DNA of 64,000 nt. Source: an uncultured Rhodospirillaceae bacterium (GTDB lineage: Bacteria > Pseudomonadota > Alphaproteobacteria > UBA7887). The stretch covers positions 10,921 through 74,920 of the forward strand of contig CAYPAX010000002.1 in NCBI GenBank assembly GCA_964408735.1. Direction: 5' to 3'. Numbering within the stretch: the first letter of the stretch is position 1; the number at the start of each line of letters is the position of its first letter. A model generated the notes under the pieces. It had not been told where the DNA came from and did not search any database. It saw nothing but the letters and a program-made list of their open reading frames with translations. Below, in pieces: positions 22,289 through 61,208 of the stretch. Position numbers and translations under genes: made by a program.

Positions 22289-22687
22289 CATCCGCAGCCC
22301 GAGGCGATTCGCGTTGCCGATGCGCACTCGTCCAAGAAAAAATGCATGTCAAGGTTCCGATTCTGTTGCAGTCGGCGGCCTGCATCGGTAGTCTTTGATG
22401 GTGGTGCTGAGGTGGCTGCGGCCAAGTTGGGCAATAAGTATTCGCATTTGGTAACCTAGAATAACGTTACAAAATAGGCGGATACGGTAAGTCTTGCCGA
22501 AATCTAGCTGGAATGATTGTGCGACGTTACTGTACGTCGTTGGGTGTGGTTGTTGTCGATAACGGCAGAATTGGCGGCTCAGGGGGGTCATGACCATTTC
22601 ACCAGCAAGATTTGACTGCGGGTTCTCCACGATGTCCCAGTGTCGGCCCTCGCCGATGCTTGATTCGATACAGCGCTAGCGGGCGTC
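22289..22687. promoter_or_regulatory. dnaA upstream control region: local AT-rich stretch (~22430-22520) and a DnaA-box-like TTATCGACA (22554-22562, reverse strand)
   Basis: Seen in the sequence: one mismatch to TTATCCACA. The rpsT-dnaA arrangement is typical of Alphaproteobacteria. Whether this is oriC is unknown. Confidence 0.3.
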
Positions 22688-24079
22688 TTGGCGGTCGTGG
22701 CAGAGACACAAAACAGGCTGGAAGCCGACGAGAGCTGGCGGCGCGTGCGCGACCGTTTGCGCGGCGAGCTGGGCAGCACCACCTTCGAGCGTTGGATGGA
22801 ATCGGTCGAGCTGGGAAGCGTCACGGGCGGGCGGGTTCAGCTTTGCGTGCCGACGCGTTTTCTGCGTGATTGGGTGGCGCCGCGCTATGGCGACCGGCTG
22901 CGCGCCTTGTGGCAGGACGAGAGCAAGAACGTGGCGGCCGTCGATATCGTGGTGCGCCCGGGCCTGCCGACTCCGGTCGACCCACCGCGCCCGAGCGGGC
23001 TTGCGACCGAGGCCGAGACGGCCGGCGAAGATCCCTTCGGCGATATCGATTCGATCGGGGCGGCGCTCGATTCGCGCTACTGCTTCGACAATTTCGTGGT
23101 CGGCAAGCCCAACGAGTTCGCCCACGCCGCGGCAAAGCGGGTCGGCGAATCGGACGACGTGCCTTTCAATCCGTTGTTCATCTATGGCGGCGTCGGCCTC
23201 GGCAAGACCCATCTGATGCACGCCATCGGCCTGCAGGTGCGAGAGCGCCGCCCCGACAAGCGAGTGATCTACCTCTCGGCCGAGAAGTTCATGTACCAGT
23301 TCATCCGCGCCCTGCGGTTCAAGAACATCATGGGCTTCAAGGAGCTGTTCCGCTCGGTCGACGTGCTGCTGATCGACGACGTGCAGTTCATCGGCGGCAA
23401 GGAATCGACCCAGGAAGAGTTCTTCCACACCTTCAATGCGCTGGTCGACCAGAACAAGCAGGTGATCGTGTCCGGCGACCGCTCGCCGGCGGATCTCGAA
23501 TATATGGACGAGCGCATGCGCTCGCGCCTCAGCTGGGGCCTGGTGGCGGAGGTGCATCAAACGTCCTACGAGTTGCGCCTCGGCATCCTGCAGGGCAAGG
23601 CCGACCAGCTCGGCGCCGGCCAGGTGCCGCCCAAGGTGCTGGAGTTCCTCGCCCACAAGATCAGCTCGAATGTGCGCGAGCTGGAGGGCGCGCTGATTCG
23701 CGTCGTCGCCCATTCCACCCTGGTGGGGCGCCCCATCACCCTGGAGAGCACCCAGGAGGTCCTGCACGACCTGCTGCGTGCCAACGACCGCAGGGTGACC
23801 ATCGAGGACATCCAGAAGCGGGTCGCCGAGTACTACAACATCAAGGTCTCGGAGATGAGCTCGGCGCGGCGGGCGCAGATGGTGGCCCGGCCGCGCCAGG
23901 TCGCGATGTATCTGGCCAAGCAGCTGACCCAGCGCTCGCTGCCGGAGATCGGCCGCAAGTTCGGCAATCGCGACCACACAACGGTGATGCACGCGGTGCG
24001 CAAGGTCGATCAGCTGCGCCAAAGCGATGCCGGCTTCGCCGAAGACGTGGAGCTGCTCAGGCGCATGCTCGAGGCCTGA
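22688..24079 (+). CDS. dnaA: Chromosomal replication initiator protein DnaA
   Basis: AAA+ Walker A (GGVGLGKTHL), Walker B (LLIDDVQF), sensor motifs and the C-terminal DNA-binding domain. The start is TTG at 22688 or GTG at 22697 and is uncertain. Confidence 0.95.
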   Translation: MAVVAETQNRLEADESWRRVRDRLRGELGSTTFERWMESVELGSVTGGRVQLCVPTRFLRDWVAPRYGDRLRALWQDESKNVAAVDIVVRPGLPTPVDPPRPSGLATEAETAGEDPFGDIDSIGAALDSRYCFDNFVVGKPNEFAHAAAKRVGESDDVPFNPLFIYGGVGLGKTHLMHAIGLQVRERRPDKRVIYLSAEKFMYQFIRALRFKNIMGFKELFRSVDVLLIDDVQFIGGKESTQEEFFHTFNALVDQNKQVIVSGDRSPADLEYMDERMRSRLSWGLVAEVHQTSYELRLGILQGKADQLGAGQVPPKVLEFLAHKISSNVRELEGALIRVVAHSTLVGRPITLESTQEVLHDLLRANDRRVTIEDIQKRVAEYYNIKVSEMSSARRAQMVARPRQVAMYLAKQLTQRSLPEIGRKFGNRDHTTVMHAVRKVDQLRQSDAGFAEDVELLRRMLEA

Positions 24080-52535: not shown

Positions 52536-55500
52536 GTGAGCGAGGACGGCGGACAAGAAGGCACCACCGAGCGCGTCGCGGCGATCCTGGCGGCGGATGC
52601 CGTGGGCTATTCGCGCCTCATGGCCGACGACGAGAAGGCGACGATCGCGGCGCTGGATCGCGCGCGGGCGGTGTTCACAGAACACATAGAGGCCAACCGT
52701 GGCCGGGTGGTGGACACGGCGGGCGACAGTGTGCTGGCGGTGTTCCAGACCACAGGCGGCGCTGTGCGGGCTTCGGTGGCAATCCAGGAAGGCCTGGCGG
52801 CGCTGGGCGAGGGTGTGCCCGAGCCGCGGCAAATGCTGTTCCGCATCGGCATCCACCTCGGCGATATTCATGAGAAGGCGGATGGCACCATCTACGGCGA
52901 TGGCGTCAATGTGGCGGCGCGGCTGGAGGCGCTGAGCCAGCCAGGGGGGATAACGGTTTCCGACTCAGTGCATGGCAGCATCCGCGACCGGCTTGACGTA
53001 AGCTTCGAGTTCCTGGGCGAGCACGAAGGCAAGAACCTCCGAGCGCCTGTGAAGGCGTATCGTGTGTTGCCAGAGGGCGTGGCTCTTGACACGTCAAAGA
53101 GTAAGCTAGGAATTCCGCGTAGTGGTGTCATCGCCGCGGCAGTGGCAGCCATCCTTATCGTGGTGGGAGCGGTTTGGTGGCAGACGCGGGCGCCCGAACT
53201 GCCGCCGATGGTGAGTGCCGCCGGCACGCCCACCGACGACCCCATTCTGGCCGCGCCCTCGGGTCCGGCGATTGCAGTGCTACCTTTTACTGATTTGTCC
53301 GAGGCAGCTGGACAAGCGTTCTTTGCCGACGGCTTGGCCGAGGACATCATTACCGGGCTGTCGCGTTTCAATCATTTGCGTGTCATCGCCCGCAACTCGA
53401 CCTTCCAGTACAAAGGCCAGGCGGTCGATGTGCGTGAGGTCGGCGAGGCGCTGGGTGTGCGCTACGTGCTCGAAGGCAGCGTCCGGCGAGCGGGTGACTC
53501 GTTACGTGTCTCGGCCCAGCTTCTCGATGCCCGCGACGGCACCCACCTGTGGGCGGAAACTTATGCCCGCGATCTCACTACCGCCGACATCTTCGGTGTC
53601 CAGGACAGCATCATGGAGCGTATCGTCGGGACCCTTGGTGATGAGCATGGTGTCATCAGTCGTGCCGGATTGGCAGAGACCGCAGCTCGCCACACCGACA
53701 ATCTCAGCGCCTACGAATGCGTGCTGCGCGCCTACGGCTATTACGACGTGATCACCCCGGCTGAGCATCTTGCGGTGCGCGCCTGCCTGGAGGAAGCGGT
53801 GGCTCTTGACCTGACCTACGCCGAGGCCTGGGGTTGGCTATCCCACATGTATCAGGACGAATACAAGTTCGGTTTCAATCCACGCCCCGACGTGGGCGAT
53901 CCGCTGGCGTCGGCCATCGCGGCTTCGCAGAATGCGATCAAGGCCGATCCGACCAGCCAGATTGGCTACGAATCCCTGGCCACGGGGCACTATTTCGCCG
54001 GCGACCTGGAGCAATTTCGTATCGCTGCCGAACGGGCGCTGTCGCTCAATCCGAACAACTCGCAAACGCTGGCCTATCTCGGCCAAATGATCGCATTTGC
54101 CGGTGATTGGGACAGAGGGATTGCCTTGATGGACAAGGCGGTGAGCCTCAATCCCAATCACCCCACCTGGTATCACGCCGCATACCTCATGCGACACTAT
54201 CGCGACGCCGACTACGCGGCGGCCTTGCTTTCGGCCAAGCGCTACAACTTGCCCATATTCTTCGCGCACCATTTGTTTCATGCGATCATCTACGCACAGC
54301 TGGGCCGGACCGAAGAGGCGCGGGCATCTATCGTCGCGCTTGAAGCGCTGTACCCGGGATATGCCGACGTAGCGCGCAGCAATCTGGAAAAATGGTGGAA
54401 AGACGAGGCGGTGGTCACTGCCATGCTCGACGGCCTGGAAAAAGCCGGCCTCTTCGATGAGCCCGAACCGCCATCCCGGCCCGTCATTGCCGTGCTGCCC
54501 TTCGACAATCTCTCTGGCGATCCCGAGCAGGACTATTTCGCCGACGGCATCACCGAGGACATCATCACGCGGCTGGCGCAGTTTCCGGACATTCTCGTGC
54601 TCGGGCGCAACACGACCTTCCAGTTCAAGGGCGAGGCGGTGGACGTGAAGGAGATCGGCGCCAGGTTGGAAGCCGACTACATCGTCGAAGGCAGCATCCG
54701 CCGCGCCGGCGAGACCGTGCGGGTCAACGCCCAGCTGCTCGATACCGAGAGCGGTGGCCATATCTGGGCCGAGACCTACGACCGCGCCCTTGACCCAGCC
54801 AACCTCTTCGCCATGCAGGACGAGATCACGGAAGCCGTCGCCAGCCGTATCGGCGACCGACATGGGGCGATTGGCCGTGCCGAGTTTCAGCGCTCCTCCC
54901 GACAAGCGCCAAAGAGTCTTTCGTCATACGAGTGCATTCTGAGATTTGTCGAGTTTCAACGGCACTTCAACGAGGAGACCCATGGTGTGGCGCGTGCCTG
55001 CCTGGAGGAAGTCGTCGAGGCAGAGCCCGATTACGGCGAGGCCTGGGCGCTGCTTGGTAATGCGTACCTCAATGAGATCAATTTTGGATTCAATGCCTCG
55101 GCGGAGTCTTCTTTGGCGCGGGCGATAGAGTTTATGGAGCGGGGTATTGCTATCGACCCGGGAAGCGGTCTGGCCCACGTTCACTTGGCCTGGGCGCTTC
55201 TCACCAACGACAACCCGGAGCGTGCCCTGCGCGAAGCCGAGGAAGCCCTGCGGCTCGATCCCAACAACGTCGAAGTCATCGCGACGGCTGGCATAGTTTT
55301 CGTGAACACGGGGGAGTATCAACGCACCGAGGAGATCATGGCCAAGGTCACGCTGCTGAACCCGAACTATCCCGCCTGGATGAACTGGAACATGGCAAAA
55401 GTTCACCTCGCGCGCGGCGACTATGCGGACGTCGTGGCGCGCCTTGAGATGACACAGATGGCGTGGTGGTATTGGACCAAAGCCTTCCTCGCCGCCGCCC

Positions 55501-55718
55501 ATTGCGCCAACGGCGATATCGAGCGTGGGCAGGAGGAGCTCGATGCCGCCCTCCAAGCTAACCCCGACCTCGCCGAGGCGTATTGGCCGGAGGTCTATTA
55601 CTTCAACAAGAGACCCGAGGTGCAGCCAATGATCGATGCCCTCTCCGCTGGCCTTGAGGTCTGTGGCTGGGACGTGCCGCCTGACCCGGGGCGACAGGCC
55701 GCGGCTGCGCCTAAATAA
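52536..55718 (+). CDS. Class III adenylate/guanylate cyclase with one TM segment and two tandem TolB-N-like plus TPR-like modules (1060 aa)
   Basis: GTG start and a CHD domain. A TM segment follows (VIAAAVAAILIVVGAVWW). The modules start at residue 244 (PAIAVLPFTDLSE...) and residue 649 (PVIAVLPFDNLSG...). Confidence 0.85.
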   Translation: MSEDGGQEGTTERVAAILAADAVGYSRLMADDEKATIAALDRARAVFTEHIEANRGRVVDTAGDSVLAVFQTTGGAVRASVAIQEGLAALGEGVPEPRQMLFRIGIHLGDIHEKADGTIYGDGVNVAARLEALSQPGGITVSDSVHGSIRDRLDVSFEFLGEHEGKNLRAPVKAYRVLPEGVALDTSKSKLGIPRSGVIAAAVAAILIVVGAVWWQTRAPELPPMVSAAGTPTDDPILAAPSGPAIAVLPFTDLSEAAGQAFFADGLAEDIITGLSRFNHLRVIARNSTFQYKGQAVDVREVGEALGVRYVLEGSVRRAGDSLRVSAQLLDARDGTHLWAETYARDLTTADIFGVQDSIMERIVGTLGDEHGVISRAGLAETAARHTDNLSAYECVLRAYGYYDVITPAEHLAVRACLEEAVALDLTYAEAWGWLSHMYQDEYKFGFNPRPDVGDPLASAIAASQNAIKADPTSQIGYESLATGHYFAGDLEQFRIAAERALSLNPNNSQTLAYLGQMIAFAGDWDRGIALMDKAVSLNPNHPTWYHAAYLMRHYRDADYAAALLSAKRYNLPIFFAHHLFHAIIYAQLGRTEEARASIVALEALYPGYADVARSNLEKWWKDEAVVTAMLDGLEKAGLFDEPEPPSRPVIAVLPFDNLSGDPEQDYFADGITEDIITRLAQFPDILVLGRNTTFQFKGEAVDVKEIGARLEADYIVEGSIRRAGETVRVNAQLLDTESGGHIWAETYDRALDPANLFAMQDEITEAVASRIGDRHGAIGRAEFQRSSRQAPKSLSSYECILRFVEFQRHFNEETHGVARACLEEVVEAEPDYGEAWALLGNAYLNEINFGFNASAESSLARAIEFMERGIAIDPGSGLAHVHLAWALLTNDNPERALREAEEALRLDPNNVEVIATAGIVFVNTGEYQRTEEIMAKVTLLNPNYPAWMNWNMAKVHLARGDYADVVARLEMTQMAWWYWTKAFLAAAHCANGDIERGQEELDAALQANPDLAEAYWPEVYYFNKRPEVQPMIDALSAGLEVCGWDVPPDPGRQAAAAPK
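53265..54479 (+). repeat. Dispersed direct repeat: module 1 of the 52536 cyclase is ~85-90% identical at nucleotide level to 7284-8495 (module 1 of the 6576 cyclase)
   Basis: Direct comparison by eye of 7381-7680 with 53381-53680. Protein identity is ~80% across roughly 400 aa, whereas the catalytic domains are only ~55-60% identical. Confidence 0.6.
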
Positions 55719-56907: not shown

Positions 56908-57528
56908 TCAGCGATCGTTAAGCGCCGGAAAGTCCCGGTAGTGCTCGCGGTGGCTGCCGGCGTGGTTGGCCATGCCGGGCTTGGTCAGCAGGCCGCGCGG
57001 CGCGATGTAGCTGTGGATGCTGCGCTTCGGCGCCTCGTGCCAGGCGATGTTGAAGGCGGCGAGCTTGGGGAAGAACTGCAGCCGGCTGTAGGGCAGGTGG
57101 TCGTGTATCCACCAGGCCAGGGCGCGCCAGTCGGCGCCTTCCGCATACAGGTCGGCGAACCAGGGCACGATGATGCAGGCGACCGCCCCCATGCAACCGT
57201 CGCCATCGCGGCGGTCCCAGATATGGCCGGCATGGTTGGCTGCGTTCGATGCACAGTTCAGACGCAATCGGTTGCCCAGCGCATTGACGTCCGCGGAGCG
57301 GTAGGCCGAGCGAATGGCGAGGCGGCCGAAGGTGGCGTTGAGCGGCTCCAATAGCTCGCCGCAGAGCTTGCGCCCGGCGGCGATGGCAAGGTCCGGATCG
57401 TCGGGAACATTGGCCAACCCATGCAACTCGGCGATCTCGCTATGCAGAAAATCGCGCAGATAGAACGACGGCGACAAACGCACCCGCCCCAGATCTTCCA
57501 GCGCCCTCACCGAGCCCGGCTTGCGCAT
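56908..57528 (-). CDS. Hypothetical protein (~207 aa), possibly zinc D,D-peptidase (M15)-like
   Basis: The segment IRSAYRSADVNALGN...NHAGHIWD...HDH loosely resembles M15 SxYRS...H..G...D...H motifs. It lies only 5 bp after the SDR gene stop. The assignment is weak. Confidence 0.3.
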   Translation of the reverse strand: MRKPGSVRALEDLGRVRLSPSFYLRDFLHSEIAELHGLANVPDDPDLAIAAGRKLCGELLEPLNATFGRLAIRSAYRSADVNALGNRLRLNCASNAANHAGHIWDRRDGDGCMGAVACIIVPWFADLYAEGADWRALAWWIHDHLPYSRLQFFPKLAAFNIAWHEAPKRSIHSYIAPRGLLTKPGMANHAGSHREHYRDFPALNDR

Positions 57529-57533
57529 TCCCC

Positions 57534-58229
57534 TCACCAGGTCTCGCCGAAAGGCCGCAGCTCGACCAGGAAGGAGCGTGCCGAGCGCGGCTGGTGGGCG
57601 GTATGGAAAATCTCGTCCGCCAGCTCCTCGGGCTTGGCGAAGGCCTCGTCGGGCTTGTCGCCGAAGCGGCGTCGCGCAAACGGCATGTCGATCAGCGCAT
57701 CGATCACCACATAGGCCACGTGCACCCCTTGCGGGCCGAGCTCGCGGGCCAGGCATTCGGCCAGGATGCGCTGGGAGGCCTTGGTCGGCGAGAAGCCGAC
57801 GAAGCTCGGAATGCCTCGCGTCGCTCCCGTGTTGCCGGTAACCACCAGCGCGCCGCTGCCGCGGGCGGCCATGGCCGGCGCCAGCTCCTGGGCGGTGACC
57901 AGGAGCCCTGTGGTGTTGACGCGGAAATTGCGCTCGAAGTCGTCCGTATCGAGGCTGGTGTAGTCGGCGAAGGTGGCCAGCGCCGCATTGTAGACCACCA
58001 CGTCGGGCTCGCCCGCCTCGTCGACAATGTGCCGCAACGTCTCGCGATAGCCATCGAGGTTGGTGATATCCGTGGGATAGGCGGTGCTGCCCTCGACCGC
58101 GCCCGCCAGCTCGCGCAGGCGCTCGGCATTGCGCGCGATCATGGACACGCGATAGCCGCCGGCGGCGAAGCGCCTGGCGCAGGCCAGCCCCGTGCCGACA
58201 CCGACGCCGACAACGAGACAATGGGGCAT
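57534..58229 (-). CDS. SDR family oxidoreductase
   Basis: 231 aa with a GVGxGxG N-terminus, NAA and YxxxK-like motifs. Confidence 0.8.
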   Translation of the reverse strand: MPHCLVVGVGVGTGLACARRFAAGGYRVSMIARNAERLRELAGAVEGSTAYPTDITNLDGYRETLRHIVDEAGEPDVVVYNAALATFADYTSLDTDDFERNFRVNTTGLLVTAQELAPAMAARGSGALVVTGNTGATRGIPSFVGFSPTKASQRILAECLARELGPQGVHVAYVVIDALIDMPFARRRFGDKPDEAFAKPEELADEIFHTAHQPRSARSFLVELRPFGETW

Positions 58230-58276: not shown

Positions 58277-58504
58277 TTATGTGTCATCGATCTCCCAGTC
58301 GTCCATGATCACGCTCTGGGATGTGCGCCGGCCGCGACAGCGGATGGTCTTGCCGACCAGCGCCTCAAGGGCCTCGTCGCGGAACGGGTTGCCGCCCTCG
58401 CGTCGGAGCAGAAACTCACCCTCGGGCGTGGCCAGCATGACCGCGTCGCGCTCGCTCTTGGAGCCCGGCGCATAGAGTCGCTTGATGACTTTTCCCGTGA
58501 TCAC
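58277..58504 (-). CDS. Small hypothetical protein (75 aa, GTG start), third gene of the lectin operon
   Basis: High-GC codon usage consistent with coding. It starts 7 nt after the 505-aa gene's stop. No recognised domain. Confidence 0.35.
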   Translation of the reverse strand: MITGKVIKRLYAPGSKSERDAVMLATPEGEFLLRREGGNPFRDEALEALVGKTIRCRGRRTSQSVIMDDWEIDDT

Positions 58505-58511
58505 CGCATGA

Positions 58512-60029
58512 TCATTTCCGATAGAGAGTCCTCACGGAAACGATAACCCCATCGCGCTCCTCGACCAAGAGCACAGCCGCATCCTGGAAAAGATCGCCGG
58601 GCGAGCCGATGGTGCCATAGGTGCTGTGGAAGCGATGCTGTTCGGCAATCATGCTGTGGGCCAGCGCGAAACTCGGACCGCCTTCGACAATGGCGGTGTC
58701 GCGCGCCGTCACCTCCAGGCCGAGGGACGCGACCAGGCGCTCGATGCCTTCGGCGACCGCGCCCTCAGGGGCCGCATCTGCCTGGGCTATGGCAAAACCG
58801 GCCTCGCTCGCCAGCGCCTCGCCGCGCGCGGTCATGCGGATGCGGTCAGCACTCCGCCTGGCCGCCTCGAGCGCCTCCTCGTCCACCACATCGAGCGCGT
58901 GCGCCTCGACAGCTTTCGCCGCCTGGACCGGGTGGGCCGCCGGATCCGAGAGCAGAATGAACTGCGCGATGGTCTTCTGATCGACCGAGCCCAAAGGATT
59001 GTTCTGGCTGATGAAGTCCTGACGCGCGAGCAGCATGGCACTGCCCGCCGAGCGACCGCCGAGAAGCTGTTTGAGGAAATCCTGGGTGATCAGGTCAGCG
59101 GCGCCCTGCCCGCTTGCGGGCCCATAGGCGATGTTGGTGCTGCCGCAAAACGCCGCGACGCCGCCCGACGTCATGGCATTGCAGATCGGCATCGTGCCTG
59201 ATCCGGAGGCGTAGAGTTCGGCGCCATAGCAGCACTCCGCGGTGGCGATCGTGCCGGCAGAGAGGTTGCCCTGGATTTGCGCGGACTCGACAGCCTTCGG
59301 ATAGCTGCTGCCCTTCTGGCCATACCAATTCGGATCCGCGTCGCTGCCGTGGCAGTTGACGAACCAGGACCGTGCGGCGAGTTGCTGGCTGGTCCAATTG
59401 GGGCCGTCGGGCGGTGACAGCTGTAGCGTGGTCGCACTGCCGAAGATTTTGCTGACGCTGGTCGTGGTCGAGCCCTGCCAGACCTCGGCGCTGACCGCGA
59501 GATAGGTCGTGTACTCGTTCTGGGGCAGGGCGGTCAGCGACGCGGAGGTGTTGATCGCGGCAACGAGCTGGGCGGTGTCGTTGCTGCCGGTTATGCCCGC
59601 AAGACGCCCGACAACCCGCGTGGGCGCCAGAAAGTCCGTAATCGTCGTGCTGTAAGCGGCGGCACAGGCATAGGGCAGGTCGGAGGGAACGTTGGCGTCC
59701 GGATCGCCCGATACCGGGTTGGTGAGGGTCTGGTGCGGCACCACGTCCGGCCCGCCGAGGATCATCAGATAGTCCGGTGTCAGTGCGGTGTAGACGCCGT
59801 CCACCGCGTCCTTGTTCTGCTGGTCGTCGGCAATGTTGGTGACCACGGGGGCGCCGAGCTTGCCCATTTGCTTGGCGTTGTCCATGAACACGATCTGGGT
59901 CGTGATGCCGCGCCTTTGGTCGGCCCCGATCAGGGTATTGAGCGCCGCCGAGATCTTCGAGACGTTGGTCCCGTACAGCTTCGTGAGCCCTTTTTGGTTG
60001 GTGACGATAACCTTGCTTGTCGTAGCCAT
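58512..60029 (-). CDS. 505-aa protein with a caspase/gingipain-like (clan CD) His-Gly...Cys signature; function unknown
   Basis: SWFVNCHGSD and GTIATAECCYGA each follow a hydrophobic strand, with 39 residues between the His and the Cys. No signal peptide. It starts 9 nt after the lectin stop. Confidence 0.55.
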   Translation of the reverse strand: MATTSKVIVTNQKGLTKLYGTNVSKISAALNTLIGADQRRGITTQIVFMDNAKQMGKLGAPVVTNIADDQQNKDAVDGVYTALTPDYLMILGGPDVVPHQTLTNPVSGDPDANVPSDLPYACAAAYSTTITDFLAPTRVVGRLAGITGSNDTAQLVAAINTSASLTALPQNEYTTYLAVSAEVWQGSTTTSVSKIFGSATTLQLSPPDGPNWTSQQLAARSWFVNCHGSDADPNWYGQKGSSYPKAVESAQIQGNLSAGTIATAECCYGAELYASGSGTMPICNAMTSGGVAAFCGSTNIAYGPASGQGAADLITQDFLKQLLGGRSAGSAMLLARQDFISQNNPLGSVDQKTIAQFILLSDPAAHPVQAAKAVEAHALDVVDEEALEAARRSADRIRMTARGEALASEAGFAIAQADAAPEGAVAEGIERLVASLGLEVTARDTAIVEGGPSFALAHSMIAEQHRFHSTYGTIGSPGDLFQDAAVLLVEERDGVIVSVRTLYRK

Positions 60030-60038
60030 GTCACGCCC

Positions 60039-60416
60039 TCACCCCTTGTGTTTCCAACAGACCAGCGAGACATAGAGATCGTTGTAGTCGTTATCGTCGC
60101 TGTCCTCGACGCTCAGATTGAAGCCGTGGCCGATGACCACGCCGTCCTCACGCGTGATGTTGTAGGAATCGATCGAGGATTTGATGCTCGTCGATTCCGG
60201 GATGTTGACCGTGATCGCCAGCCCGGTCCCCGCGATGTAGTCGCTGCCGACCGACAGCGGCGGCTCGATGTTGGTCGACTTCCGGCTGGTACTGACATAG
60301 GTCTTGCTCGAATCCTTGAGCGTGACGCCGATGGTGTAGCCAGCTTGTGTGAACATGGTCCAGGCCATGAACAGGCCCTGGTCGAAATTCGGCACACTGT
60401 AAGTTTTGGTGGCCAT
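60039..60416 (-). CDS. PA-IIL/LecB-family calcium-dependent fucose/mannose-binding lectin (125 aa)
   Basis: The C-terminal end reads VEDSDDNDYNDLYVSLVCWKHKG-COOH. It matches the LecB calcium/sugar-binding motif (LecB C-terminus: VGSEDGTDNDYNDAVVVINWPLG), including the C-terminal Gly. Strong GGGAGGGAG RBS. Confidence 0.65.
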   Translation of the reverse strand: MATKTYSVPNFDQGLFMAWTMFTQAGYTIGVTLKDSSKTYVSTSRKSTNIEPPLSVGSDYIAGTGLAITVNIPESTSIKSSIDSYNITREDGVVIGHGFNLSVEDSDDNDYNDLYVSLVCWKHKG

Positions 60417-60593
60417 TGTCTCCCTCCCTCAAATTGCATTTCTTTAAACATTACCATTAAAAATAGATAAAATAAATACACTGCCGCTATTCCGAGTAAA
60501 CAGATCCTGCTTGCGACATCAGGCGTGCCGATAATTGCCGGATCTTTCGGGCGCCGCGGGCTGTCAAAACGAGCCCGCCTTATCGCGCAAGGC
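60417..60593 (-). promoter_or_regulatory. AT-rich promoter region upstream of the lectin operon
   Basis: The stretch reads aaattgcatttctttaaacattaccattaaaaatagataaaataaatacactg. This is the most AT-rich intergenic segment in the window. Confidence 0.3.
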
Positions 60594-61208
60594 TTAGGCG
60601 CGGGCGGTCGGACGTGCGGCGACTCGCTGCCACCAGGCGGCGAGGTTGGCCTGGTCGTCGGCAATGCGCACCTCGCACACTCCCTTGGCGATGAGCACGG
60701 CGCATTGGGCGGTGATATCCGCTACCGTGTAGTCACCCGTGGCGATGAAGTCCCTGCCCGCCAGCTCTTTGTCGAGCCAGTCGTAGCGCGCCTTGATCTT
60801 GTCGCGGCAGGCATCGGCCCAGGCGGGGATCTGCGCCATGCGGCCGGCCCACATCTTGTGGCTGTGGACGAAGGTCTGCATCGCCGGATAGAGAATTTCC
60901 AGCTCCATGCGCCGGTTCCACATCTCCACGTCGGCCTGCTCGCGCGCGTCGCGGCCGAACATGGACGGCTCGGGATGCTCGGATTCGAGATAGCGGCAGA
61001 TGGCCACCGACTCGGCGATGCAACTGCCGTCGTCGAGCTCCAGCACGGGCAGCAGGCCGAGCGAGTTCTTGGTTTCGAGAAATTCCGGCGTGCGGTTCTC
61101 GCCCTTCATCATGTCGACCATGACGGTGGGAATATCGAGGCCCTTTTCGGCCAGGAAGATGCGCACGCGCCGCGTATTGGGCGAGCCGGCGAGATCGTAG
61201 AATTTCAT
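60594..61208 (-). CDS. Glutathione S-transferase
   Basis: 204 aa; N-terminus MKFYDLAGSPNTRRVRIFLAEKGLD. Confidence 0.85.
   Translation of the reverse strand: MKFYDLAGSPNTRRVRIFLAEKGLDIPTVMVDMMKGENRTPEFLETKNSLGLLPVLELDDGSCIAESVAICRYLESEHPEPSMFGRDAREQADVEMWNRRMELEILYPAMQTFVHSHKMWAGRMAQIPAWADACRDKIKARYDWLDKELAGRDFIATGDYTVADITAQCAVLIAKGVCEVRIADDQANLAAWWQRVAARPTARA

Follow-up and report, generated by a model that had tools for sequence, protein, structure and literature searches.

An operon built around a predicted gingipain-fold peptidase gene and its small partner gene, with a LecB-like lectin as accessory, in an uncultured Rhodospirillaceae bacterium

Three minus-strand genes in the stretch of DNA analysed here (64,000 nucleotides from an uncultured Rhodospirillaceae bacterium, referred to as a whole as the window) form a genuine operon that is built around a conserved two-gene module. 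The module consists of gene B, which encodes a predicted cysteine peptidase of the gingipain fold, and gene C, a small gene that lies directly downstream of B and is translationally coupled to it. Gene A, which encodes a predicted Ca2+-dependent lectin, is a facultative accessory placed ahead of B and C in some lineages. Taken together, the identities of the products, the core position of the B-C pair and the accessory standing of the lectin are in our judgement highly probable. The operon as a whole is on balance best explained by a B-C core in which C gates B and to which the lectin has been added.

Results

Organization of the operon

The features of the locus, listed from the upstream to the downstream end of the operon, are:

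60594-61208: GST-like gene, upstream of the operon
60574..60591, minus strand: terminator-like hairpin and T-run at the 5' boundary of the operon, 3' of the GST-like gene
60417..60573, minus strand: putative promoter region and leader, rich in AT and lowest in GC within the 64-kb window
60419-60430, minus strand: ribosome-binding site GAGGGAGGGAGA, inside the AT-rich leader
60039..60416, minus strand: gene A (125 aa, ATG start), putative lectin of a distant subfamily of the PA-IIL/LecB superfamily
58512..60029, minus strand: gene B (505 aa, ATG start), predicted gingipain-fold cysteine peptidase (family C25, clan CD)
58277..58504, minus strand: gene C (75 aa, GTG start), partner of B, predicted OB-type beta-barrel
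57534-58229: SDR gene, the next gene downstream, 47 nt beyond gene C

The coordinates of the open reading frames confirmed the close packing given in the preliminary description of this DNA, as the spacers are exactly 9 nt between genes A and B (GGGCGTGAC) and exactly 7 nt between genes B and C (TCATGCG). The strong ribosome-binding site lies 5 nt ahead of the ATG of gene A, and AAGGGG precedes gene B, overlapping the stop codon of gene A. The hairpin behind the GST-like gene has a 5-pair stem, a loop of 8 and the tail CTCGTTTTGA; it would terminate transcription of the GST-like gene, which implies that the operon has its own start. No terminator-like site was found 3' of gene C.

The same description had placed an AT-rich promoter ahead of the operon, in what it took to be the intergenic region of the window richest in AT. 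The AT-richness was borne out: among all 150-nt windows of the 64 kb, GC is at its minimum (0.413) in those that start at 60331-60401, which span about 60331-60550, and the intergenic region 60417-60593 has 48% GC. The promoter upstream of A is still a deduction from position and composition, since a scan of this stretch with the sigma-70 consensus gave no convincing minus-strand promoter. The possibility that A is preceded by a riboswitch or a structured leader was rejected, as there was no Rfam family in the window and the folding was no better than that of shuffled sequences (z +1.26). There were no tRNAs in the window.

Gene B is predicted to encode a gingipain-fold peptidase

Judged from its modelled structure, B is an active-looking cysteine peptidase with the gingipain (C25) fold. 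The Pfam family Peptidase_C25 (PF01364) matched B with 33.6 bits against a cut-off of 23, a match that covers only profile positions 291-372 of 374 (residues 285-365), and PF01364 matches are precomputed for most B homologues. In the AF2 model (pLDDT 89, pTM 0.91) the predicted two-subdomain alpha/beta catalytic fold of the gingipain type begins at residue 4, the catalytic domain takes up approximately residues 1-370, and a long helix (384-409) leads into a variable alpha/beta C-terminal domain (411-505). The His-Gly and Cys motifs, i.e., FVNCHG (59346-59363, containing H227-G228) and ECCYG (59223-59237, containing C266 and C267), each follow a predicted strand (221-225 and 261-264, respectively). 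In 79 of 79 homologues H227, G228, E265, C266 and C267 do not vary, and D312 is invariant too, as are several further Asp residues. The Pfam match above the cut-off, the predicted fold and the invariant His and Cys residues all speak for the clan-CD-like assignment suggested earlier for this protein.

In Bacteroidota, C25 peptidases are known both as virulence factors that are secreted and as T9SS sortases. B resembles the gingipains RgpB and Kgp of Porphyromonas gingivalis (MEROPS C25, clan CD) in its match to Pfam C25 above the curated cut-off, and the B family shares with them, without variation, a His-Gly motif and a Cys, each situated behind a hydrophobic strand. However, the sequence identity between B and the gingipains is only 12-16%, and searches of PDB sequences with B alone and with the B-family profile returned nothing meaningful and no gingipain sequence. 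The signal peptide, the N-terminal prodomain, the IgSF and adhesin domains and the T9SS C-terminal domain of the gingipains are all missing from B, which carries an unrelated alpha/beta C-terminal domain instead; B is found in many phyla that lack T9SS, and it is accompanied by the 75-aa partner gene. A hydrophobic N-terminus was absent in all 20 B-family members inspected. The lack of a signal peptide, prodomain and secretion tail suggests that B is a soluble, presumably cytoplasmic enzyme. The structural relatives of B include PorU, legumain-type peptide ligases and GPI transamidase. The idea that the C-terminal domain of B (380-505) is a paralogue of C was rejected (hhalign probability 0.1%).

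Gene C is predicted to encode a small OB-type barrel

The structure of C, predicted from a 7-sequence alignment, is a five-stranded OB-type barrel (AF2, pLDDT 90.6) with the order b1-b2-b3-helix-b4-b5, in which loop 12-18 is modelled at lower confidence. This region contains the exposed loop GSKSE (residues 14-18, 58451-58465), in which K16 and S17 are the same in all 43 sequences compared; the second conserved stretch, LRR-x-GGNPF-x-D, comprises residues 33-43 (58376-58408). In the model, L12 and the loop that follows b3, both of them conserved, occupy what would be the canonical ligand face of an OB fold, an arrangement that a sensor would fit as well as an inhibitor. No family match to C was obtained in Pfam, NCBIfam, PADLOC or PHROG, a single-sequence search of C against the PDB gave nothing meaningful, and none of the 43 C-family members has an N-terminal hydrophobic segment. 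With a net charge close to neutral (median +1, range -5 to +6) and few conserved aromatic residues, C is less likely to be an ssDNA-binding protein.

Potempins are OB-fold inhibitors that are bicistronic with their peptidases and insert loops into the active-site cleft (PMC9890683). C shares with them a predicted five-stranded OB barrel and a gene adjoining a peptidase gene in one operon, and for potempins A, C and D of Tannerella forsythia, which are co-transcribed with the KLIKK peptidases, the codons overlap or nearly touch those of the peptidase gene, as in the case of C. However, the potempins are lipoproteins with signal peptides and are encoded upstream of the peptidase, whereas C has no signal peptide and is encoded downstream; moreover, potempins inhibit metallo- and serine peptidases and C partners a cysteine peptidase. 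The identity of C to potempin A is 8%, and Foldseek placed the potempins no higher than generic OB folds.

Gene A is predicted to encode a distant LecB-type lectin

By its sequence A is a member of the LecB/PA-IIL superfamily and would thus be a sugar-binding lectin dependent on Ca2+, albeit a distant one whose membership is visible at the profile level only. A profile built from 46 diverse sequences of the lectin family matched thrombocorticin (E 3.7e-5, positions 10-121) and LecB (E 3.3e-4, positions 12-119) in the PDB, and also BC2L-A, RS-IIL, RSC3288 and CV-IIL, so that 16 of the 17 matches were PA-IIL-superfamily lectins. A single-sequence search of A against the PDB found no LecB entry and nothing meaningful. 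A live hmmscan of A gave only DUF4114 (E 0.18) and did not reach PF07472, while the precomputed annotation lists PF07472 (E <=1e-5) for a protein identical to A; among the 46 family members, 7 reach PF07472 (best E 2.1e-4) and 27 reach DUF4114.

The putative Ca2+/sugar loop of A, EDSDDNDYND, comprises residues 104-113 (60078-60107), and the C-terminal WKHKG lies at 60042-60056. Q24, E104, D105, D108, D110, N112, D113, W121 and G125 are each at least 90% conserved among the 46 members. BLAST paired E104, D105, D108, D110, N112 and D113 of A with E95, D96, D99, D101, N103 and D104 of LecB, and the terminal G125 corresponds to the C-terminal G114. In LecB the ligand set consists of Glu95, Asp99, Asp101, Asn103 and Asp104, which form the two-calcium site, and the sugar-contacting Asp96 (PMC8752737). 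Thus, in the alignment to LecB, A has retained all side chains that serve as Ca2+/sugar ligands as well as the free Gly at the C-terminus, and the earlier call of a LecB-family lectin agrees with the profile matches and with this conservation. The lectins of this superfamily are also similar to A in size, align with the family profile over the full length, have the acidic loop E-D-x-x-D-x-D-x-N-D and end in a free Gly, and LecB, like A, has no signal peptide. The similarity of A to these lectins is, however, detectable by the family profile only, and its C-terminus (W-x-x-K-G) is one residue longer than W-P-L-G of LecB. According to our reading of the sequences, T23-Q24-A25 of A (60342-60350) stands at the position of A20-N21-S22 of LecB, with Gln24 replacing Asn21, and the sugar-specificity triad differs. 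A also differs from LecB-type lectins in sharing an operon with a protease. In all members, standalone and fused, the lectin domain is at the extreme C-terminus.

B and C are the conserved core

The B family is large and patchy, with more than 2,000 protein clusters, and 524 loci were found in 185,579 species genomes (about 186,000) of many phyla, including Actinomycetota, Planctomycetota and Nitrospirota. In 82 of 86 loci B is directly followed by a C homologue (80 of the loci in this count come from the species-genome scan), and the B stop and C start codons often overlap or are at most 10 nt apart. Three of the four loci without C are contigs that end just past B; in a Simkaniaceae genome (L067), C is absent and the dyad of B is intact. 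The pairwise identities of B and C are correlated (r = 0.71), a value reached by none of the 500 label permutations. The conserved core therefore consists of B and C, and the two genes co-diverge. The 75-aa frame, treated at first as an appendage, has turned out to be the key partner.

Among the other neighbours of the pair, the only recurrent families are a GDSL (SGNH) hydrolase, seen in 6-8 loci, and an S8 subtilase, seen in 4. No modification, export, secretion or acceptor genes recurred among 147 flanking genes. Membership in a known defence system was rejected, as PADLOC gave only a weak Csm6 match (E 0.0036, B residues 11-67) and PHROGs gave nothing; a defence-island context was likewise rejected, there being no enrichment among the 147 flanking genes. 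In the literature searched on cytoplasmic C25 peptidases with a small partner, on C25 or gingipain-like proteins in defence or conflict and on LecB-protease operons, the module is not described. The best match among reference species genomes is 52% identical.

Two side observations concern metagenomes. A locus identical to that of the window is present in JGI sample 3300008627 and in the ENA SCRA20 and SUTE22 metagenome assemblies. Toxin genes of TA systems were seen near the pair in all three metagenome loci inspected, which is anecdotal.

The lectin is a facultative accessory

The order A-B-C is found in the window, in L005, in L006 and in L109/L115, i.e., in four independent flanking contexts, across which the lectins are only 58-71% identical; retention of the order at such divergence suggests selection for linkage. 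The search for syntenic lectin and protease neighbours thus showed that the three-gene arrangement does recur. Nevertheless, the pairing of lectin and protease that had been regarded as the core of the operon is not its core, because the lectin is missing from most B loci and, in L111, a 67%-identical lectin is present in the absence of B. Two close B relatives, P0010 and P0008, have only B and C, and lectin homologues from gut metagenomes have neither B nor C nearby.

The operon is not a recent import

A lower GC content of the lectin gene (about 57%) and the 505-aa gene (about 62%) had been taken as a sign of horizontal acquisition. The value for the lectin gene was correct (56.9%), but that of the 505-aa gene is 64.8%; the 75-aa gene has 64.5% and the mean of the window's genes is 66.3%, genes B and C lying within 0.7 sd of the latter. 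The GC3 values are ordinary for all three genes (A 0.833, B 0.820, C 0.829, in comparison to the window mean of 0.826, sd 0.058). The first-position GC of the lectin gene is 0.444, and its low overall GC thus reflects amino-acid composition rather than foreign codon usage. No direct or inverted repeats flank the cassette beyond short chance matches inside genes, and around the B-C pair in other genomes there is no enrichment of mobile or defence genes, the 147 flanking genes belonging to housekeeping families. Since the GC3 is that of the host genes, foreign codon usage and recent transfer were rejected, the operon is not a recent import, and the cassette is old in this genome. Of the three outcomes that the preliminary description had named as speaking against it, namely ordinary composition, a housekeeping identity of the 505-aa protein without a peptidase fold and a neighbourhood conserved in no other lectin-containing genome, only the first was encountered, and its finding is thus corrected rather than refuted.

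Discussion

We propose that C would bind B in a ratio of about 1:1 and gate its activity. C would most likely serve as a latency inhibitor, with the Lys16-Ser17 loop occupying the active-site cleft as a substrate would, and its action might resemble that of the co-transcribed OB-fold potempins and of the staphostatins. In the staphopain-staphostatin operons of Staphylococcus (scpAB, sspBC), the protease gene is followed by the gene of a small cytoplasmic beta-barrel protein, and the staphostatins bind the protease cleft like a substrate and protect the producer. The gene order is that of the B-C pair, in which a cysteine protease gene is likewise immediately followed by a small beta-barrel gene. 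However, neither B nor C is related to these proteins in sequence or fold; the staphopains are secreted proenzymes of the papain fold (clan CA) and the staphostatins are eight-stranded barrels of about 105-110 aa. Inhibition of B by C through the Lys-Ser loop is possible, and we put it forward tentatively. If free B were toxic, an intact B without C, as in L067, would not be expected. Where the lectin is present, in a minority of lineages, it would add glycan recognition, so as either to target the complex or to respond to a sugar ligand. At the Ca2+ levels of the cytoplasm, binding by a Ca2+-dependent lectin would be poor, and this counts against the proposed model.

C could also be a ligand-sensing or adaptor subunit whose OB face binds an oligosaccharide, a nucleotide, a nucleic acid or a client protein and thereby switches B on or directs it, in which case the lectin and the GDSL hydrolase would be alternative modules for glycan-related input or output. 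In C, the conserved residues (GSKSE, LRR and GGNPF-x-D) are in loops of the usual OB ligand face, the recurrent accessories (the PA-IIL lectin and the GDSL/SGNH hydrolase of 6-8 loci) are carbohydrate-related, and the solitary B of L067 is easier to understand if B is inactive on its own than if it is toxic. At the same time, the near-neutral charge and the few conserved aromatic residues of C are atypical of OB folds that bind ssDNA or RNA, C matches none of the four family libraries searched, and the flanks show no defence-island enrichment, so we regard a sensor role as possible but rather doubtful.

The strict pairing and co-divergence would also suit an enzyme with a private substrate, which B might cleave after Lys16 or Arg34-Arg35 or transpeptidate, whole or as a fragment, to another molecule. 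The scissile bond could be that of the invariant K16-S17, which lies in a flexible loop. Attachment of this kind is carried out by PorU, a sortase related to C25, and by ligases and transamidases of clan CD, and PorU, legumain-type peptide ligases and GPI transamidase are among the structural relatives of B. Nevertheless, C is predicted to be a compact barrel throughout (pLDDT 90.6), with no leader-plus-core layout and no hypervariable region, the C-terminal tails of the C family differ in both length and sequence, and modification, export or acceptor genes do not recur nearby. We therefore consider it unlikely that C is a dedicated substrate.

LecB reaches the cell surface without a signal peptide, and the adhesin domains of gingipains differ in fold from PA-IIL. 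It is very improbable that, as initially suggested, lectin and protease form a recently transferred, secreted glycan-targeted effector comparable to a gingipain and hemagglutinin split across genes: the LecB-type lectin with its intact sugar site, the gingipain fold of B and the maintenance of A-B-C in four contexts at 58-71% lectin identity would agree with it, but the comparison is an analogy only, as none of the three families has a signal peptide or TM segment, in which they differ from the gingipains, B has no T9SS domain, no secretion genes recur nearby, most B-C loci lack the lectin and the 67%-identical lectin lacks B, the GC3 equals the host average without insertion scars, and the invariant 75-aa partner is left without a role.

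The C25 fold is seen here in a setting without an export signal, across many phyla, and coupled to a very small predicted OB-fold protein that matches no family library. Speculatively, the B-C pair may represent an unrecognised, phylum-spanning class of intracellular regulated proteolysis, in which a gingipain-fold protease is held or steered by an OB-fold subunit. With similar reserve, and by analogy with caspase-like CHAT and metacaspase systems, it might act as a self-contained stress, suicide or immunity switch with interchangeable glycan-related accessories. If this is true, the operon described here would be the first case in which a LecB-type lectin is linked to a protease switch in the cytoplasm. 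If C is an inhibitor or a switch, the pair would offer a compact system to study the control of a caspase-like protease inside bacteria and a possible source of new specific protease-inhibitor pairs. In addition, the variant with the lectin bears on the role of LecB-like lectins in environmental bacteria outside infection.

Gene arrangement and expression signals

The arrangement of three minus-strand open reading frames in the preliminary description, with spacers of 9 nt and 7 nt, was confirmed. The genes encode a lectin (A), a gingipain-fold (C25) protease (B) and a small barrel protein (C):

60039-60416, minus strand: A, 125 aa, ATG start
58512-60029, minus strand: B, 505 aa, ATG start
58277-58504, minus strand: C, 75 aa, GTG start
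60591-60574: hairpin and then a T-run, after the upstream GST-like gene

The A/B spacer reads GGGCGTGAC and the B/C spacer TCATGCG. A strong ribosome-binding site, GAGGGAGGGAGA, lies 5 nt ahead of the ATG of A, and AAGGGG precedes B, overlapping the stop codon of A. A consensus scan of the AT-rich stretch upstream of A revealed no minus-strand sigma-70 match, and the leader had neither an Rfam match nor an unusual structure. Downstream of C there is no terminator-like site; the next gene, an SDR (57534-58229), starts after 47 nt. A 206-aa ORF without a Pfam family (56908-57528, minus strand) lies between the SDR gene and an MR_MLE-type enolase-superfamily gene; metagenome records also call it as a gene without Pfam matches.

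B and C form the conserved core

We counted 86 loci, consisting of 80 kept from a scan (524 loci in 185,579 species genomes) and the window's own relatives. In 82 of them the gene directly after B encodes a homologue of C, the exceptions being three contigs that end just after B and one locus, L067, with B alone. Cultivable species with the B-C pair include Chitinophaga costaii, C. alhagiae and Taklimakanibacter lacteus. The B and C genes often overlap or are at most 10 nt apart, and the pairwise identities of the two proteins were correlated (r = 0.71, a value that none of 500 permutations attained). The conserved pattern of C is G-x-V...GSKSE-x-AV-x-L-x-T...LRR-x-GGNPF-x-D...L-x-x-LVGK, in which K16 and S17 were invariant in 43 sequences. 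We show that C is an obligate, co-diverging and translationally coupled partner of B with a predicted OB barrel. As regards the exceptional locus (L067:5992-7509, from a Simkaniaceae MAG), it was the sole full-length one with an intact His/Cys protease and no C-like gene in 13 kb; in place of C, the protease gene is followed by a 207-aa ORF.

Over 2,000 clusters make up the B family; their proteins are 490-550 aa long and almost all carry the label "hypothetical". The cysteine-peptidase-like nature first proposed for the 505-aa protein was borne out by a Pfam Peptidase_C25 match above the curated cut-off, which covers the last 80 profile positions only, and by the dyad signature: H227-G228 (FVNCHG) and E265-C266-C267 (ECCYG) are invariant in 79/79 homologues, like many other positions, among them D312. 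B shows the fold of gingipains, its dyad never varies, and the conservation marks it as an enzyme that purifying selection strongly maintains and whose catalytic domain is of gingipain type. An alpha/beta domain unrelated to C makes up the last 95 residues of B. In the window, residue 222, directly before FVNCHG, is Trp (59364-59366); in 78/79 homologues it is His.

Possible roles of C

Staphostatins are encoded downstream of staphopains, and this logic, together with that of the potempins, underlies the model that we tentatively favor, in which C would bind B in a complex and would most likely hold the intracellular protease latent by offering its Lys16-Ser17 loop to the cleft. Potempins A, C and D, each encoded bicistronically with its peptidase, have an OB fold and inhibit that peptidase via surface loops (PMC9890683). 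They are a documented parallel to the role proposed for C rather than proof of it: C has fold and gene linkage in common with them, whereas sequence, localisation signal and gene order differ.

The main alternative, which we consider rather unlikely, is that C is an OB subunit that senses a ligand or acts as an adaptor. The location of its conserved residues on the canonical OB ligand face, the glycan-related accessories of B-C and the tolerated absence of C in L067 are all consistent with such a role; however, nucleic-acid binding in particular is disfavored by the neutral charge of C and the scarcity of conserved aromatic residues. A role of C as a dedicated substrate, or in transpeptidation, appears improbable. 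None of the three proteins has an export signal, and a secreted form of the glycan-targeted effector envisaged in the preliminary description is improbable as well.

The lectin is an accessory to the B-C pair

The preliminary description proposed a search of other genomes for LecB homologues with clan-CD neighbors. The A-B-C arrangement occurs in the following loci, among which the lectin identities are 58-71%:

Window: identical in several metagenome assemblies
L005: beside a Por_Secre_tail gene
L006: Rhodospirillaceae MAG
L109/L110/L115/L116: beside a ribosome hibernation factor gene and a ParE toxin gene

No lectin was found upstream of B in any other genome locus, and the close B relatives P0010 and P0008 comprise B-C only. 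Thus, the emphasis initially placed on a lectin-protease pairing needs to be shifted to C, the regular neighbor of B, and the lectin is an accessory to the B-C pair. At L111:270-4039, a lectin 67% identical to that of the window is accompanied by another lectin paralogue but by no B. There the two paralogues flank a 245-aa protein without a known family, with a secreted repeat protein downstream, and the calcium loop of the 67%-identical paralogue is degenerate (EGQTDENYND). Lectin homologues from gut metagenomes (31% identity) had no B or C nearby. These lie on human-gut contigs (L088-L104, e.g., L098:2041-9039) amid Mfa-like fimbrillin, BspA-type LRR and DUF6765 genes, with a C11 clostripain-like peptidase, also of clan CD, about 2.5 kb away on the opposite strand.

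Besides the lectin, the only genes that recurred next to B-C encode a GDSL/SGNH hydrolase, in 6-8 loci, and an S8 subtilase, in 4; these may be alternative accessory genes. The GDSL/SGNH hydrolase (Lipase_GDSL_2) directly beside B-C has no signal peptide (L077:301-1233 and 5-7 other loci). Other flanks were ordinary metabolic or housekeeping genes, and defence or mobile elements were not enriched. Toxin-antitoxin genes (HigB toxin, ParE toxin, a DUF5615/DUF433 pair) lay within a few kb of B-C in 3/3 inspected metagenome loci (L107, L108 and L109/L110), an enrichment absent from the larger nearest-neighbor census.

Family and sugar site of the lectin

When the single A sequence was compared with the PDB, no LecB entry was found, and the sole match in a live Pfam scan was DUF4114 (E 0.18). 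Direct BLAST against LecB aligned only the C-terminal EDSDDNDYND...W segment. The LecB-family assignment made from the sequence alone was nevertheless substantiated by a 46-member profile, which matched thrombocorticin (3.7e-5), LecB (3.3e-4), BC2L-A, RS-IIL, RSC3288 and CV-IIL over the full length; with one exception, its full-length matches were PA-IIL-superfamily lectins. Positions kept in at least 90% of members were Q24, E104, D105, D108, D110, N112, D113, W121 and the terminal G125. LecB holds two Ca2+ via the Asn21 main chain, Glu95, Asp99, Asp101, Asn103 and Asp104 and the Gly114 C-terminal carboxylate of the neighboring monomer, while Asp96, Asp99 and Gly114 form hydrogen bonds with the sugar (PMC8752737). 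BLAST mapped E104, D105, D108, D110, N112 and D113 of A onto E95, D96, D99, D101, N103 and D104 of LecB. This correspondence shows a LecB-type Ca2+/sugar site and indicates that A probably represents a distant LecB-type subfamily with the two-calcium site intact. Homology, the Ca2+ loop and the C-terminal Gly place A in the PA-IIL superfamily, and its fit to the curated Pfam model is borderline. A precomputed annotation of a protein identical to A lists PF07472 (version.18) as an unmarked match, whereas live hmmscan with PF07472.16 gave no match even at E ≤ 10; the PF07472 assignment hence depends on the model version.

An exhaustive profile search placed 229 representative clusters in the A family, mostly standalone proteins of 125-133 aa, the lectin domain always being at the C-terminus. 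It is the C-terminal part of larger proteins in P0241, P0259, P0199, P0214, P0157, P0225 and P0235, and fusion partners include cytidine deaminase, adenosine deaminase, GLUG repeats, dockerin and a metallo-beta-lactamase fold.

Base composition and horizontal transfer

The stretch upstream of A was correctly described as the most AT-rich intergenic one, since the 150-nt windows starting at 60331-60401 have the lowest GC of the entire 64 kb (0.413). The second-lowest (0.447-0.453) lie at 22421-22580, in the gap that precedes a gene at 22688-24079. The lower GC content ascribed to the operon applies to the lectin gene (56.9%, z = -3.4 against 48 window genes), whereas B (64.8%) and C (64.5%) are within 0.7 sd of the window gene mean. 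The lectin deficit sits in the first codon position (GC 0.444) and thus mirrors amino-acid composition. The GC3 values of A, B and C (0.833, 0.820 and 0.829) equal the window mean (0.826, sd 0.058), and no repeats flank the cassette. The original argument for horizontal transfer therefore needs correcting, as nothing in the composition points to recent acquisition. Over long time scales the B-C module does travel horizontally, as its patchy occurrence among lineages shows. Elsewhere in the window, the gene for a 1060-aa protein with a guanylate/adenylate cyclase domain and TPR repeats (52536-55718, plus strand) has a GC of 62.6% and a GC3 of 0.749, both below those of neighboring genes.

An undescribed form of C25 peptidase

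The finding of the preliminary description is real; the mechanism is inferential. B has the sequence, fold and dyad of family C25 but lacks the secreted-proenzyme architecture of its known members, having neither a signal peptide nor a prodomain. The B-C pair is without a model in PADLOC, PHROGs and NCBIfam, and no description of it was found in the literature searched. We therefore regard B-C as an undescribed form of C25 peptidase, presumably cytoplasmic and pan-bacterial, that is encoded together with a small partner and occasionally joined by a LecB-type lectin. The operon is more than an isolated oddity, since its core pair is both widespread and unstudied.
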